A model generated the notes under the pieces. It did not search any database and had not been told where the DNA came from. It saw only the letters and a list, made by a program, of their open reading frames with translations. Shown here piece by piece: positions 2,693-17,358 of a stretch of DNA of 64,000 nucleotides. Within the stretch, counting starts at the first letter, position 1. Each line of letters begins with the position of its first letter. The position numbers and the translations under genes were made by a program. The DNA lies in contig CP128815.1 of the NCBI GenBank assembly GCA_051546255.1, positions 1,054,001 to 1,118,000 on the forward strand, read 5' to 3'. The DNA comes from Meyerozyma guilliermondii (Eukaryota).

Positions 2693-4957
2693 TCAGTTTA
2701 TCAACGCCAATAATTCATCGCTGAAATTGCCGCGATGTGAAGAGTCGAGAAACTCTTGTTCGAGTGTCTCTTCTGCATCCGTTTCATTTTCAGATCTCTC
2801 TGGCTTTATAAACACAATGGGATCTTTAAGTAATTTTTTGAGTTCTTCTTTCTTTTTGTAGTTGCGGTGTATGCCTAGTTTTCGATAAACGAACCCGTTC
2901 ACCTCCCATCCCAACTCTCGGGCAACCTTGAAGAGATTCTTGCTTGGTTCTGCATCGCTTTTAACTCCGTGCTTCACCAACTGTTGGTACCAAAGTTCGG
3001 CTTTTTTGTACTCTTTGTGTTCGTAATGGTACATGATGAAAGGGTAGATTTGGTTGAAGGTAAACGGCAAATTAAGACTCCGCGATTCACGGACCATTTT
3101 CGTAGCAAACTCGTAATCTCTGTGAACAGATAGGGCCGTGGTGATGAGTAAATCAAAGAGATATGGGCTCCTGTTGCGACGACTGGTAGGAGCTATTCGG
3201 CTAAAGTAATCGCCAATAATGTCTTTTGCAGTGGAGTAAGCAGCTTCGCTCTTTACCATGCACATATCGTTATTTTCGGGATTCTCCTTAAGTAAGTATT
3301 TGATAATTAGCGTAACCACATGGTCGTTTTGTCTCGATGGCTTGAAGATGGGATGCTCTGCTTTGACCAAAGTTTCAATGTACGTGTCGTACAACTCCTT
3401 CAATAGTTGAGAAGTGAGAACAGATCTGTGAAGAGACGATAGACACATCTCATATGCCTGAGTGAGAGCTTTGGGAGTAATGTTGAAACCCCCAAGTCTT
3501 TCGTCGATATTCGCACGTTGAACTCGAAGCTCCGGGTTCTGAAGCTCGACAGCAGAACCATCTTGGTAAACCAATCCTAGAAGTTTGAGTTTGTTTAACA
3601 CTTTTATTCCATCCTTGAAAACGGCTGCAACATACCCAAACATTATTTTGGGAGTCGTGGGGTATTTAGCCTGAATTAAGCACAATATTTGATCGGTCAA
3701 CGCTAAGCAATCGGATCGTGTGAGCGTTTCGGGACGAATGTTGTTCATTAGCAATAAAGCTTCCTGGAAGTAGCCTTGGTTTCTCAAGTTCTTCATAATG
3801 ATCATCAAGATATCAAATGATATGGTAACGTTATTATGGACCATATACTGCATCATTCTCAAGCATTCTTGTGAGCCTTTGAAAACCATAACATGGTTAA
3901 GAAGGACCTTAAGAAGTAACAGGATGTCGGTATTGATGTCTGAATCTTTAACACGAGGTACGTAATTTTCTTTGCCAACAAGTTTGCACTTTTCCTCAAA
4001 TTTCGTAACCAAGAGACTGACATACATATTTGCGTTCACGATGTCTCTTTTTTCTATCGAATGTGTTGCAAACCGTGCCAAGTCTCTTACGGAAAAGAAT
4101 ATTCTCATTCTGGTGATATGGCTTGGAGCAATGGTTGGTTTCCGAATATCATGCCATTTAGGGTTCAAAAGTCCGGTTTTAGCGACCAATTTTTCAAGAT
4201 TCAGTCCTGCTAAAAGTTCGTGTTTTAGCTTCTCCATATGACTTATGACATAGGTCTGAATGTTCAAAATCACTAGATATGCGTACAACTCGGCAAACTT
4301 TTCTCGGGGCATTATTCGAAGTATTCGCTCGAACAATAGTGAATTCAAGATTAGTGGTTTCTCGTTGCAAACGTTTAATTTCCTCAAGTTATCAAGGTAT
4401 GAGAGAAGAGTGGTAGCCTGTTTCTCTTTATTTAGTTTAAGAATGAAGGCAACTGTTTGGAAAAACTTGGATCGAAAGGTATTCGCCGTATGGTCTATCA
4501 TCATTTCTACCAATGATTCTTTTATTGTATCCGACGCAGCCAACATTCGGAGCTGTTCATTGACTGACTCCTTGAGCTCTGAATTGTCTATGGCAAAGTA
4601 GTAAATGCTCGCTGTTTCCGTATCATCAAGGATCATTCCATCAATTATTTCAGCCATGCTGGTACAGAATTGTTCTGTTTCTCCTACCCATTTGTACGGA
4701 ATTTTGATCAAGTGTAGATACTCGTCCATCTTTAGTCTTCTTATATCGTCTGAGCTCATACCAAACAAAGGGCTGGGATATGTATCTAGAGAAATCTTCT
4801 TCCAGATGATTTCATCATCTTTCTTGGAAAATAAAAATGGTCGTAAACGAGGATGTTGTATGGGTATCAGAGCCGTTTCGTGTGTTGTAGCTGATATGCT
4901 ATTAGCTCTGACAAATCTTCCCACGTACTTGGACGTTAGGAAAATACGTCGGAACAT
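2693..4957 (-). CDS. Mitochondrial helical-repeat (PPR-like) protein, probably an Atp22-like translational activator
   Basis: Likely ATG at 4957 gives an Arg-rich, acid-free presequence (MFRRIFLTSKYVGRFVRANS). PPR-like segments: FDILMIIMKNLRNQGYFQEALLLMNNI and YKKAELWYQQLVKHGVK. The Atp22 call is inferred from proximity to a YPQ gene, as with S. cerevisiae ATP22/YPQ2. Confidence 0.6.
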   Translation of the reverse strand: MFRRIFLTSKYVGRFVRANSISATTHETALIPIQHPRLRPFLFSKKDDEIIWKKISLDTYPSPLFGMSSDDIRRLKMDEYLHLIKIPYKWVGETEQFCTSMAEIIDGMILDDTETASIYYFAIDNSELKESVNEQLRMLAASDTIKESLVEMMIDHTANTFRSKFFQTVAFILKLNKEKQATTLLSYLDNLRKLNVCNEKPLILNSLLFERILRIMPREKFAELYAYLVILNIQTYVISHMEKLKHELLAGLNLEKLVAKTGLLNPKWHDIRKPTIAPSHITRMRIFFSVRDLARFATHSIEKRDIVNANMYVSLLVTKFEEKCKLVGKENYVPRVKDSDINTDILLLLKVLLNHVMVFKGSQECLRMMQYMVHNNVTISFDILMIIMKNLRNQGYFQEALLLMNNIRPETLTRSDCLALTDQILCLIQAKYPTTPKIMFGYVAAVFKDGIKVLNKLKLLGLVYQDGSAVELQNPELRVQRANIDERLGGFNITPKALTQAYEMCLSSLHRSVLTSQLLKELYDTYIETLVKAEHPIFKPSRQNDHVVTLIIKYLLKENPENNDMCMVKSEAAYSTAKDIIGDYFSRIAPTSRRNRSPYLFDLLITTALSVHRDYEFATKMVRESRSLNLPFTFNQIYPFIMYHYEHKEYKKAELWYQQLVKHGVKSDAEPSKNLFKVARELGWEVNGFVYRKLGIHRNYKKKEELKKLLKDPIVFIKPERSENETDAEETLEQEFLDSSHRGNFSDELLALIN

Positions 4958-5030
4958 ATATCCAGAGTTGCAAGTTTTCGATCTAGTGGAAGATGCTGCG
5001 AAAGTATTAATGTATGGAGGTATGGATGTT

Positions 5031-5936
5031 TCACTGGTGGTTCCACAGAGTAAGAGAAATGGGAGGTTCCACCGGCTTTCTATATATGCGACGCTGGTAG
5101 AAGTATGCAAGGTCAAACACAATTGTTCCAGCACTCCCAAGAATGTATGGAAGCTCCTTTATAAAAAATTCATGTCGCAAATCATCATTGACAAAGTCGC
5201 AACTGGTAAGTATTGACAAGGTATAAGTAAGGTTTCCAATAAGTGCTGCACCGAATAAAAGTGGTGATATTCCATCTACTGACTTTCTTTGGTAGTTTTT
5301 GTAGAGCTGAGGACAGCGTGAGGCCATGTAAACGAACGTACATGCCCATGCAAGAAGGACACCCAAAACTTCCCCAAAAGAACTTTCTTTTTCAGGAATG
5401 TTACTTGTCAGCAATGCGCTGGCTCCCTGGGCCATGGAGGAAACTGCAATTGACTTGACAATCGGCAGGTTATCCGTAGAACTGTAGCTCCCGCTGGGCG
5501 AATTGGATATTGACCCTGGTGTAGGAATTGCTCTATGTGAGCCGTCAGTTATATGAGTTTCTGCATCAGTATGGAACAAGCTTTCATGGGTAGTTGTACC
5601 GGAGTCAATTTCCAGGACGAGTCCATTCACGCTTTTGTAATTGTTTGAGGTGCGCACCAGGTAGTAGTAGTATTGGAAACACAAGGTTAAGTCGTTGCAA
5701 ATGAAAAATAAACTCAAGTACACCTGGAACTTGAGTACCACCTTATTGAGCAAGCAGCTCGTAAAACTCAAAAAATCACCGGCAAACCAAAGCGCCAAAA
5801 ATGACGGTGAGATTCCGTCGGCAGACTTGTTCTTATAGTTGGTGTAGATTTGCGGCATCTGGGCACAGATCCAGCTACACAAAGAAACGGTGCTGAAGAA
5901 GTCAGAGACCCCTACGAAATGGCCACATGTGTCCAT
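5031..5936 (-). CDS. PQ-loop vacuolar cationic amino acid transporter (Ypq1/Ypq2/Rtc2 family)
   Basis: Two PQ-loop repeats: AQMPQIYTNYKNKSADGISP and SRCPQLYKNYQRKSVDGISP. ATG at 5936 (MDTCGHF). Confidence 0.9.
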   Translation of the reverse strand: MDTCGHFVGVSDFFSTVSLCSWICAQMPQIYTNYKNKSADGISPSFLALWFAGDFLSFTSCLLNKVVLKFQVYLSLFFICNDLTLCFQYYYYLVRTSNNYKSVNGLVLEIDSGTTTHESLFHTDAETHITDGSHRAIPTPGSISNSPSGSYSSTDNLPIVKSIAVSSMAQGASALLTSNIPEKESSFGEVLGVLLAWACTFVYMASRCPQLYKNYQRKSVDGISPLLFGAALIGNLTYTLSILTSCDFVNDDLRHEFFIKELPYILGSAGTIVFDLAYFYQRRIYRKPVEPPISLTLWNHQ

Positions 5937-10090: not shown

Positions 10091-12094
10091 CTATCTCTTT
10101 CCCTTCTTCTTCACGCTGACTCCTATTCCCTCTAGACTCTCCCACACGCTAGCAGGCACCTTTTTGGTCAATTTGCGGCCATAAAGACACTGGTCAACCA
10201 ACCACATGCCAACGAGAAATTCGGGCTTATTTAAGGTGCCGTCCTTTCTATAATCAACTAATTCCCAAATATCACGTAAAGTCTCCGAAGGTAACCTGCT
10301 TCGTTCCCAAATCCTTTCCACGACCGAGCTGTGTATTAATTGACTGATCTCGGCATTGGTGATGTTGTGAAATTCGGCACTTTGATAGCCACCATTTGCA
10401 CCCAGTACGGTATCAGCCTGCTGCTTTGCAGAAAGTCTTGCCGCCTTCATTGAATCTTCTTCGTCGACTATAATCTTCTGTTCTGATCCTCCTCCGCTAC
10501 CGTAATCAATTCCATTGATTCTAGTTACCACATAATTGAAGTAGGTTCCCCGGTTACTCGCCCACACTCCTTCGTATCTCTTGCGATCAGCTTCCGAGAT
10601 CCGGTCAAGATCACTATGATTCTTCCATGGTTTGTCCACATCAAACAGTTTTTTGTCTTTTTTCTTCTTCTTCGAATCTCTCATTGTGGTCTTGAGCTGG
10701 ACATGTTGCAGCTTCTGATGCACTAAAGGTGGAGCGGTGGCTCTCGAAACAGGAACAGTCGCCTTGGGATACTCAAAATCTGATTCAGAGCCCAGTTCAG
10801 TCATCTTTCCAACATTCTGGTTCGATTCGCCGTGGCGTTTGCGGATCTTAAACTTTGTGCTTGAGGTATCCAACTCTGGATACTGAGGAAGTTTTATAGG
10901 TTTAGACAAGTCACTGTCGTTGCTTCCCATACGGTTGCGGCCCATGCTTTCGTTGTCTGTCAGATAAGAGCCTGCGTCGAGCAGTGAACGTGAACTACCT
11001 GGATTCAAGGACGAACTATCTGAGAAGAATGCCCCATCTAAGTCTGTAGTCGGTTTGAGTTCTGGTGGAGGTTTTCTTTTTGGTTTCTTGTTTTTGTCTT
11101 CGTTCTTCTCCTTCTCCACCTGATATTTCAAGCTCGAGAGATGAGAACGAGCATCGTCGGCGGAGCCTGCCGAATTAGCAGATCTTGCACACGCATTCAG
11201 AGACGGTGGAATGAGAATTGGCGCTGTATTTCTGCGTTCCTGGTCGATATCGGAGTCTTCTCGTGGAGACAGTAAATCATACTGGCTGTTGAACGGGGAA
11301 TCGACCACTATACTTGGAGTTTCAGGACCACGATCATGAAGGTCGATGTTCAGATCTGGATTACTGTATGCCAGAGGAACAGATTCAAATGATGAGTATG
11401 AGTAGTTTGGCGAGTGAGCCTCATATGGTGATCGTAGTTCGTCAGGTGGAGCAAAATTGTAGGGTGAATTTGAACTGGTATCAAGAACAATCATGCTACT
11501 GTTGGCCTGAGTAGTTATACGTTTCAGCTCTATGCTCTCGCGAATTCCATTGATGGTTGCCATGTTTCTCTCGTTCACCTTGGCTTGGTTGGGTATGTTT
11601 CTCGTCCTATCGTTGATCGACTGGCGGATCTTGGTGAGCATATCACTGGGCTGGTTCTCTTGGGCAAGACGTTTGGCCTCAGAAGCGTGCCTTTTGGCCT
11701 CTATAGAGTCTTTCACCGACTTGATCATGTTCAGGGGAAGACTGGCCGAAGATGTAGAAGGTGATGTCATTTGTTTAGGGGTTGTAGTTCGATACAATGG
11801 CAGTGGTGAGCTACTTCGTTGACGATTATTTTCAACATTTTTCTTCGTTTCATGGCCACTTGCCGTTACTACCGATAGTTGGGGCTTTTGTGGAGCCTTT
11901 GGCGGCAGTCTATTAATTGCATTGACAGCTGTAGCATTTCTTGAATTTGTTAGGCGACCAGAAGGATTTCGTTTAACATTGCGTTCAGGTGATTGATGAA
12001 CCTTTGAAGGATTCTGGTCTGTTTTAGGGTGTGTGCTGATGCTCTTAAAAGCAGCCAATGCCGCAGCTTGGCTTGTGGACTGGCCAGCAGACAT
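10091..12094 (-). CDS. IRS4: EH-domain protein Irs4/Tax4
   Basis: Low-complexity N-terminus, LKTTMR..FDVDKPWK..RKRYEGVWASN, and C-terminal EH domain IWERSRLP..IWELVD..EFLVGMWLVDQCLYGRKL. Confidence 0.85.
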   Translation of the reverse strand: MSAGQSTSQAAALAAFKSISTHPKTDQNPSKVHQSPERNVKRNPSGRLTNSRNATAVNAINRLPPKAPQKPQLSVVTASGHETKKNVENNRQRSSSPLPLYRTTTPKQMTSPSTSSASLPLNMIKSVKDSIEAKRHASEAKRLAQENQPSDMLTKIRQSINDRTRNIPNQAKVNERNMATINGIRESIELKRITTQANSSMIVLDTSSNSPYNFAPPDELRSPYEAHSPNYSYSSFESVPLAYSNPDLNIDLHDRGPETPSIVVDSPFNSQYDLLSPREDSDIDQERRNTAPILIPPSLNACARSANSAGSADDARSHLSSLKYQVEKEKNEDKNKKPKRKPPPELKPTTDLDGAFFSDSSSLNPGSSRSLLDAGSYLTDNESMGRNRMGSNDSDLSKPIKLPQYPELDTSSTKFKIRKRHGESNQNVGKMTELGSESDFEYPKATVPVSRATAPPLVHQKLQHVQLKTTMRDSKKKKKDKKLFDVDKPWKNHSDLDRISEADRKRYEGVWASNRGTYFNYVVTRINGIDYGSGGGSEQKIIVDEEDSMKAARLSAKQQADTVLGANGGYQSAEFHNITNAEISQLIHSSVVERIWERSRLPSETLRDIWELVDYRKDGTLNKPEFLVGMWLVDQCLYGRKLTKKVPASVWESLEGIGVSVKKKGKR

Positions 12095-14612: not shown

Positions 14613-15391
14613 ATGGGTGATAAAATTATCTTGCACTGGTATGTGGTTACGAAAGTTGATATTTTGCAACTGGAATTGCTTTATATTGCCATACTAACAT
14701 TAGGCTTAATCAATCTCGGTCTCAGAGAATCTTGTGGTTGCTTGAGGAATTGAACCTCGATTATGAACTTAAAACCTACAAGAGGACCAAAGATTTTCGG
14801 GCACCTGCTGAATTGGAAAAGGTCCATCCATTGGGTAAATCTCCTGTCATTGAGGTGATCCGTGATGGTAAGTCACTGGTGATTGCTGAAACTGGACACA
14901 TTATTGATTATTTGATTAAAAACTACGATACGTCCAAGAAACTCGTTCCTGCTACAGAAGAAGACAAGGAACAGGTTGACTATTTCTTGCACTATTGTGA
15001 AGGTACTTTGCAACCACTTTTGGTATCGTTGTTGGTCAATGGTTATGCAGTTCAGATGGCACCATTTCCTGTCAAATTTCTTGTTCGTATGATCACCAAC
15101 GAACTAAACAAGGCTTACTACAAGACTGAGCTCATGAAGAATCTCAAATACTTGGACAACTACTTGGCGAAGAGAAAGACAAAGTTCTTTGTGGGAGACA
15201 AGTTGAGTGGTGCTGATATCATTCTTGAGTTTCCTCTTATTGAAAACTTGACAGATAACAAAAGAATCAAGGAATTTGCTGGTGATGATTTTGACTTGAG
15301 AAAGCTTTTTCCTAACATCTGTGAGTGGTCCGACCGGATTCTCAAGGAACCAAAGCTTATCAAGGCGAATGAAAAGGTTGCGAAATTGTAG
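14613..15391 (+). CDS. Glutathione S-transferase, Gtt1 family, copy 1 (exons 14613-14638 and 14704-15391); C-terminal AKL
   Basis: Spliced N-terminus MGDKIILHWLNQSRSQRILWLLEEL; HPLGKSP, AETGHI and FFVGDKLSGADI motifs. Confidence 0.92.
14639..14703 (+). other. Spliceosomal intron, 65 nt, phase 2
   Basis: GTATGT...TACTAAC-ATTAG; removal restores the conserved HWL..SR start of the GST. Confidence 0.92.
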
Positions 15392-15624: not shown

Positions 15625-16376
15625 ATGGGTGAGAAAATCGTGGTATATGGGTAAGTATATTTTGATCTGATGCAAGGCCATACTAATCCAGCTTCAAAGG
15701 GTCTCGGGCGGATACCATTATCTGGCTCTTAGAGGAATTAGGAGTTGAATATGAAGTCAAGTATGTTCAACTTAAAAGGATGTTCACGGCTCCCAAAGAG
15801 TTCAAAGACTTCCACCGCTTGGGAAAGGCTCCTATAGTGACGATCACAAAGGACAATGGCGAAGTGATCACCCTTGCTGAGTCGGGCCATGTTTGCTCTT
15901 ATTTTCTTAGACATTACGATACCAACAAAAAATTGCTTCCCAATGTCAAAAATGCTGAAGAAAAGGTCGACTATTTCCTCCACTACTTGGAAGGCACTCT
16001 CATGACATCTGTAATTGGACTTGTCGTCACTTTTTCTACCACAAGAAGACACAAGCATCTTCGCGACGATTTTCAGAACATGATTGGTACCTATTTTTTA
16101 CCCGAATTACGCAACAACCTCCTGTATTTGACTGAACAACTAAAAAAATCATCCGGACCATACTTCTTGGGAGACAAGTTGTCTGTCGTAGATATTTACT
16201 TATCGTATCCATTTTCAGGGTTGATTGGACCTACATACGGCTTATTCACCGGCAGCGAAAAGAAGCTTGAAGACGATTATCCAGAGTTGGCAAAATGGAT
16301 GGAAACACTCAAGAATGAGCCAGGAAGAATCAAGGCATATTCCAATATCGATCTGAATATCGTTCTGAAGCTTTAA
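15625..16376 (+). CDS. Divergent glutathione S-transferase, Gtt1 family, copy 2 (exons 15625-15650 and 15692-16376); C-terminal SKL under CUG=Ser
   Basis: Spliced N-terminus MGEKIVVYGFKGSRADTIIWLLEEL is in frame with ORF 15780-16376; HRLGKAP, LAESGHV, YFLGDKLSVVDI. Confidence 0.88.
15651..15691 (+). other. Spliceosomal intron, 41 nt, phase 2
   Basis: GTAAGT...TACTAAT-CCAG; same codon position as the introns of the two neighbouring GSTs. Confidence 0.82.
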
Positions 16377-16531: not shown

Positions 16532-17358
16532 ATGGGCGCTGGAGATCACGGCGACAAATTCATCCTCCATTGGTATGTATTAGACTTTTATTGCAGACAT
16601 GAGAAACTAACCCAAGGCTTAATGAGTCGAGAGCACAAAGAGTAATATGGTTGATGGAAGTGCTTGATTTGGAGTACGAGGTAAAAGTGTACCTTAGACA
16701 TCCTCAGACTTGGCGTGGGCCCCCTGAGTTGTTCAAGGCTCATCCTCTTGGAAAAGCGCCCGTACTCGAAGTTATTTTCGGCGATGGCTCACCACCTTTA
16801 AAGTTGGCTGAAACTGGATTGATTTTCCAATACTTGTTAAACAATTATGACCATGAAAACTTGCTTACTCCAACAGATCCCCGTGATAAGCTCAAGGTTG
16901 ACTACTTTTTACACTATGCTGAGGGCACATTGCAGGGACTTTTAATCACCCTTCTTATCAACTCTGTCGCAAAGAAGATTGCACCTTTTGGATTCCAGAC
17001 TCTCGCCAAACTTGTTACTAGAGGTCTTAATAACGGTTACTACTTACACGAATGGTACCTTAGTGTCGATTTCCTCGAAAGTGAGCTCAAGAAAAATGGA
17101 ACCGGATATTTTGTGGGAGACCGTTTGTCGGCTGCTGATATCATGCTTTCGTTCCCAGTCTATGAAAATATCTTTGACAATCCTGGCGGTATAAAGGAGT
17201 GTGTGGGAATAACCGATGATTTGTACAAGCTTTATCCAAACTTGGGAGGATGGTGTTGCCGCATCAGAGACGACCCAGTGTACGTTAAGATTGGAGCTAT
17301 GATGGACGAAAAGGTAGAACAGTTCAAGCAGAAAAAGGGACGTAGAAAGAGCAAGTAG
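16532..17358 (+). CDS. Glutathione S-transferase, Gtt1 family, copy 3 (exons 16532-16572 and 16617-17358); basic C-terminal tail
   Basis: Spliced N-terminus MGAGDHGDKFILHWLNESRAQRVIWLMEVL; HPLGKAP, AETGLI, YFVGDRLSAADI. Confidence 0.9.
16573..16616 (+). other. Spliceosomal intron, 44 nt, phase 2, AAG acceptor
   Basis: GTATGT...AACTAAC-CCAAG; this acceptor restores HWLNESR in frame with ORF 16651-17358. Confidence 0.85.

Follow-up and report, generated by a model that had tools for sequence, protein, structure and literature searches.

A predicted peroxisomal targeting signal with a CTG-spelled serine in a tandem glutathione S-transferase gene of Meyerozyma guilliermondii

Within a 64,000-nucleotide stretch of the M. 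guilliermondii genome, here called the window, positions 16365-16376 of the forward strand read CTG AAG CTT TAA and close a 236-codon gene for a glutathione S-transferase (GST). In the standard code this gene ends in Leu-Lys-Leu (LKL), whereas in translation table 12, where CUG is Ser, it ends in Ser-Lys-Leu-stop (SKL), the canonical type 1 signal for targeting to peroxisomes (PTS1). The first-pass annotation had noticed both readings and proposed that ambiguous decoding of this one codon might split the enzyme between peroxisome and cytosol. The locus raises the question of whether the signal is real, whether the spelling of its Ser is unusual, and whether a misread CUG could matter for sorting. 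The letters of the gene end were borne out by the sequence, and the SKL reading by the tests of the code.

The gene, copy 2 of an array of three, spans 15625..16376 on the forward strand, as do all features given below in that orientation, and encodes 236 aa ending in IVSKL. The gene model has two exons (15625-15650 and 15692-16376) and a 41-nt intron (15651-15691, GTAAGT..TACTAAT..CAG) that is joined in the RNA contigs of two of four public runs, and the spliced translation is identical to NCBI protein P0025. It contains three CTG codons, at positions 153 (16122), 230 (16353) and 234 (16365). The last of these was covered by RNA contigs of three of the four runs, with no other letter there and no variant in the SKL-stop; the fourth run was gapped over the CTG and is uninformative. 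As the RNA evidence consists of contigs only, it gives neither expression level nor strand. In Pfam, the full protein matched GST_N and GST_C domains above cut-off (PF02798/PF13409 and PF00043/PF14497), and its best solved relative was 4hz4 (E 5.9e-14). A wrong frame or a pseudogene was ruled out by the spliced open frame and the transcript, and an alternative last exon by the RNA contigs, which hold no such joint. The tripeptide stands at the extreme C-terminus of this spliced, transcribed gene and agrees with the PTS1 consensus (S/A/C)(K/R/H)(L/M). Another entry for copy 2 in NCBI/UniRef, P0026 (198 aa), is shorter: its first residue is an internal Met, and exon 1 is missing together with the N-terminal strand-helix (window 15625-15779); the RNA contigs back the spliced 236-aa form rather than this one.

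The code itself was assessed on the whole genome and on the window. A genome search with a short pattern had a sole match, a tRNA gene with anticodon CAG (L004), which takes a cloverleaf fold whose long extra arm is GC-rich and has G33, G37 and the discriminator G73. These identity elements are the ones given for tRNA-Ser(CAG) in the accessible part of PMC8178436. ARAGORN calls the gene Leu, on the anticodon alone, and when the genome was searched for tRNAs with Rfam, the 63 of 644 candidates that were scored did not include the CAG tRNA. When Pfam scores of 19 window proteins were compared between tables 12 and 1, Ser was favoured (by at least 1 bit) in eight and Leu in one, eight lay within 1 bit, and two had no family. 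The NCBI protein whose sequence equals that of spliced copy 2 under table 12 is labelled Meyerozyma guilliermondii. The genome reads CUG as Ser, as the first-pass annotation had held, and the standard code is ruled out by the tRNA(CAG) and the Pfam scores.

The choice of code is visible in the protein records. The cluster of copy 2 has 10 members, eight of which end in LKL and two in SKL; the latter are both from NCBI and have S at all three CTG sites. The warning that standard-code annotation would miss the signal thus holds for the standard-code records, but not for the NCBI annotation of the species, which already shows SKL. A small annotation point follows, namely that proteins of CUG-Ser yeasts can lose a visible PTS1 in standard-code databases. 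Two records near-identical to GST 1 and 2 (P0027 and P0190), with L at the CTG sites, carry the NCBI name Naganishia cerealis. This species is a basidiomycete, and the records probably stem from a mislabelled or contaminated assembly.

We consider it likely that copy 2, a Gtt1-like GST from a yeast with CUG-Ser decoding, carries an ordinary PTS1, and that the Ser codon simply happens to be CTG. How much Leu is placed at CUG is disputed, and the earlier statement that a small fraction is decoded in this way finds mixed backing in the literature. The review PMC8178436, in its accessible part, lists C. guilliermondii among ambiguous decoders and gives 2.96% Leu at CUG for C. albicans. G37, present in the tRNA here, is the feature linked to leucylation. 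On the other side, the accessible text of a proteogenomic study (PMC8645108) describes CUG as no more ambiguous than other codons, with Leu at background, and that of PMC11420639 gives 0.17% Leu at CUG in wild-type C. albicans (2/1197 codons), with Ser-to-Leu as the sole substitution there. As far as these partial sources go, the reported values for C. albicans range from background to about 3-5%.

Nor is LKL clearly a dead signal, and there are homologues that end in LKL and VKL. According to the accessible part of PMC4882508, LKL yields peroxisome-type products in S. cerevisiae in an indirect assay, at a level below SKL, which beat other tripeptides including LKL; in PMC3427985, again in the portion available, LKL is among the validated plant PTS1. 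Piggyback import, by which signal-less proteins enter peroxisomes with a partner, is established in the accessible text of PMC9549241. The residues upstream of SKL in copy 2, YSNIDSNIV, include no basic residue. Under the PTS1 rule, such a non-basic context means that the LKL form could import poorly in copy 2. GSTs are dimers, and with dimerisation assumed from the family, 3% Leu would make LKL/LKL dimers 0.09% of the total by our computation.

A small fraction of LKL chains, less well imported, might exist as unselected noise without function. We regard this as possible but somewhat doubtful. In its favour are the finding that wild-type C. albicans shows no substitution at CUG other than Ser to Leu, which occurs at 0.17% (accessible part of PMC11420639), and the advantage of SKL over other tripeptides including LKL (PMC4882508, same limit); against it, the second proteogenomic study, in its accessible text, has no Leu bias (PMC8645108), and any LKL fraction would be masked by heterodimer import.

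The first-pass annotation took SKL to be a PTS1, and comparison across the family supports this. A canonical [SAC][KRH][LM] end was found in 20 of 70 yeast-like cluster representatives, picked by rank and name with one truncated match excluded, versus none of 94 mostly bacterial matches. The looser end x[KRH][LM] was present in 29 of the 70, with A at position -3 in 14, S in six, L in four, and G, T, I, V and Y once each. Orthologues of copy 1 end in AKL, except for one with SKL; the collection behind that record renders CTG as L, so its Ser is spelled by a non-CTG codon. The PTS1 of copy 2 goes beyond chance because it is a family trait, seen in the AKL of copy 1 and in the ratio of 20/70 to 0/94, and the SKL is likely a real signal. 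On the most likely reading, the Gtt1-like GSTs in this group of yeasts are probably enzymes of the peroxisome. Literature searches on Gtt-type GSTs in peroxisomes and on this species gave no matching title. The other 41 yeast-like homologues do not have even the looser end x[KRH][LM], and 12 of them end in PNI; therefore the family is not uniformly peroxisomal. The PNI end, conserved in twelve Candida/Lodderomyces-type homologues (P0042-P0062), may be a non-canonical signal or a lost one. Three GSTs, P0153, P0060 and P0163 (C. orthopsilosis, C. metapsilosis and C. parapsilosis), end in PLKL in NCBI records; this is either LKL acting as a natural signal or a CTG that the records conceal. If the NCBI records of this group were translated with table 12, as we presume, the Leu would be a true Leu; NCBI and Logan records of the group have no S/L difference, and so the code behind the NCBI ends is not proven.

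Copy 2 lies between the two other GSTs of the tandem array. The three genes are the only matches of the protein genome-wide and have one short intron each, close to the gene start. Copy 1 (14613..15391, 237 aa, intron 14639-14703) ends in VAKL, its last codons, GCG AAA TTG TAG (15380..15391), giving Ala-Lys-Leu-stop, a canonical and CTG-free PTS1. Copy 3 (16532..17358, 260 aa, intron 16573-16616) is PTS1-less and has the basic tail KKGRRKSK. Both of these introns were joined in all four RNA runs. A similar three-GST array on a contig of another yeast (L291) has ends of SKM, VKL and a basic tail, and the Ser of its divergent SKM copy is spelled AGT; this was the only such locus among the metagenome matches listed, which included no Meyerozyma orthologue DNA. 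In copy 3 (16532-17358) and in its L291 counterpart (4295-5059), basic tails, KKGRRKSK and KKSKKRR, respectively, take the place of a PTS1. Judging by these ends, the paralogues of the array may be sent to different compartments.

Copy 2 is a fast-evolving paralogue, 38% identical to copy 1, and in a tree of 46 rows picked from the matches its lineage sits on a very long branch of 1.35 changes per column. The grouping of copy 2 with a PLKL/DGKL clade in this tree was set aside, since its support of 88/78 is on a long branch. Such divergence, together with the motif missing from 41 of 70 yeast-like homologues, could mean that SKL is a vestige, masked or unneeded in an enzyme that is mainly cytosolic or membrane-associated like Gtt1, which in S. 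cerevisiae is associated with the ER. We find this improbable. In the alignment, all nine Meyerozyma-type sequences, whether of copy 1 or of copy 2, have K-L at their very end, despite only 34-36% likeness between the copies there, and the tripeptide stayed terminal when a duplication extended the linker ahead of it.

That duplication is a 12-nt tandem repeat (16344..16367, 11 of 12 bases alike), which encodes NIDS-NIVS before KL, and each unit ends with a CTG. Codon 230, outside the PTS1, and codon 234, within it, are both part of this one event. The 66% orthologue P0003 has a single unit, NIDLKL in its standard-code record, and the 89% orthologue P0030 has both units, with L at both CTG sites in a record of the same kind. 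The L at -3 in these two proteins may stand for a retained CTG or for a genuine codon for Leu. The non-signal CTG at codon 230 behaves like that at codon 234, being L in the 89% orthologue too. Under table 12, the nine one-step neighbours of CTG include no Ser codon and four Leu codons. With no synonymous one-step neighbour, CTG should be conserved at any site that needs Ser, and its conservation would be no sign of regulation. The comparison of orthologue codons proposed in the first-pass annotation is therefore one-sided: a kept CTG shows a need for Ser, not regulation.

We then asked whether CTG at the -3 codon departs from chance. In 27 window genes, CTG accounts for 8.5% of the Ser codons (111 of 1303); a Ser-rich gene of 667 aa with 14 CTG codons (window 10091-12094) ranks among the densest in this count. 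All 52 CTG-Lys-Leu-stop sites of the genome were read, and only copy 2 lies in a long open frame, the next two frames having 101 and 98 codons and no Pfam match. Distinct Ser-Lys-Leu-TAA/TAG sites numbered 246 (33 with CTG and 213 with other Ser codons), where two identical contig-end copies were counted once and TGA stops were included for CTG only. The sites L093, at the end of C1, and L094, at the start of C2, have an identical short reading and pattern context, which fits shared subtelomeric repeats. The set of SKL-ending genes was made from 17 frames of at least 200 codons, minus one antisense-looking frame without a Pfam match, plus a 131-codon SCP2 gene. The resulting 17 genes comprise 15 with the kind of Pfam matches that metabolic enzymes have, one unmatched long frame and copy 2; this count misses genes that are short or have a short last exon, as well as other tripeptides, with SRL, SHL and SKM uncounted. 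A wider pattern, with CTG ahead of other PTS1 variants, gave 832 matches, of which 100 were listed, and no count was drawn from it. Some SKL-ending genes were less expected: a cytochrome P450 (L241), a glucosamine-6-phosphate isomerase (L087), a Cys/Met PLP enzyme (L197), a beta-lactamase-fold protein (L160) and a long protein that lacks any Pfam match (L120).

CTG spells the Ser in one of the 17 SKL-ending genes, where 1.4 would be expected (P of at least one, 0.78). Copy 2 is singular in its genome, yet its CTG looks like an unsurprising spelling at chance frequency, and a dual-targeting switch element enriched over chance is not seen, with CTG in 1/17 SKL ends against 8.5% of Ser codons.

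It is very unlikely that CUG ambiguity serves as a localisation switch, in which Ser would yield SKL enzyme for the peroxisome, Leu would yield LKL enzyme for the cytosol, and stress would shift the balance between them: to G33 and G37 in the tRNA(CAG), the naming of C. guilliermondii as an ambiguous decoder with about 3% Leu in C. albicans (accessible part of PMC8178436), the dual targeting of fungal minor isoforms by readthrough or splicing (PMC9549241, likewise), the non-basic context ahead of the tripeptide and the L at -3 in the standard-code records of the 89% and 66% orthologues, one must oppose the chance frequency of CTG at SKL ends, the like behaviour of the non-signal codon 230, Leu at background or 0.17% by proteomics (accessible text of PMC8645108 and PMC11420639), the activity of LKL as a PTS1 in S. 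cerevisiae (indirect product assay) and plants (validated) in the partial sources above, a copy 3 that is already PTS1-less, and the consideration that a signal-losing minor form would scarcely enlarge the amount of enzyme already kept in the cytosol by incomplete import. The split between peroxisome and cytosol proposed at the outset is not supported as meaningful or selected, given that CTG occurs at chance frequency, that Leu is small and disputed, that both CTGs lie in one duplication and behave alike, and that LKL is not clearly dead. That stress-raised Leu-tRNA(CAG) would act as a targeting dial, moving a detoxifying enzyme from peroxisome to cytosol, seems equally unlikely; if it did, dual targeting would have a further route, through codon ambiguity, beside readthrough and splicing. 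The literature searched, mostly open papers, contained no description of codon ambiguity used for organelle sorting. Apart from this, a native gene with a CUG signal residue offers a simple natural read-out for the disputed question of Leu at CUG.

An ordinary PTS1 with a Ser that happens to be CTG can be put into a sequence of steps. Copy 2 is a rapidly evolving member of an old array of three GST genes in a CUG-Ser yeast, and tRNA-Ser(CAG) reads its last codons as Ser-Lys-Leu, as the sequence, the tRNA and the code tests show. From PTS1 biology, Pex5 would bind SKL and bring the protein into the peroxisome, where it might conjugate or reduce oxidised lipids and xenobiotics. The signal would be inherited from the family, while the -3 residue drifts between Ala, Ser and others; CTG, as one of seven Ser codons, would persist since each one-step change alters the residue. 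Misreading as Leu would produce at most a few percent of LKL chains, mostly paired with SKL partners and presumably co-imported, so that no regulated cytosolic pool would form. Counterpoints to this ordinary-PTS1 account are that the GST family is not uniformly peroxisomal, that copy 2 is a singular case in its genome, that L is retained by its two closest orthologues in standard-code records, that the non-basic stretch ahead of the tripeptide could make an LKL form import poorly, that the tRNA has G37, and that the review, in its accessible part, names C. guilliermondii an ambiguous decoder.

Among known systems, copy 2 resembles the PTS1 cargo of Pex5 (PMC4882508, in its accessible part) in having SKL right before the stop and a paralogue with AKL. 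It differs in that its Ser is spelled CTG, giving LKL in the standard code, and in that import is here a prediction. With the fungal Gtt1-like GSTs, such as the tandem Candida GTT genes GTT11-13, it shares GST_N and GST_C domains and a tandem array, and homologues in CUG-Ser yeasts are named glutathione S-transferase; unlike them, copy 2 is on a long branch, and the C. albicans-type homologues end in PNI rather than a PTS1. S. cerevisiae Gto1 is of the omega class, whereas copy 2 matches Gtt1-type and bacterial GSTs, so that the likeness between the two is functional only. It lies in Gto1, a Pex9 cargo, being a glutathione transferase in the yeast peroxisome (accessible text of PMC7474679). 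As in the cryptic dual targeting of Pgk1 in U. maydis and Gnd1 in C. albicans (PMC9549241, accessible part), one gene could yield peroxisomal and cytosolic forms; in those cases, however, the minor form gains a PTS1, whereas that of copy 2 would at most weaken one, and no alternative 3' splice form of copy 2 was seen in the RNA contigs. Finally, as at the functional CUG sites of C. albicans, such as LeuRS residue 919 (PMC8178436, in the part available), Ser versus Leu at a CUG could matter, but those sites concern activity, at a level of ambiguity that is itself disputed, and the codon in copy 2 concerns targeting.
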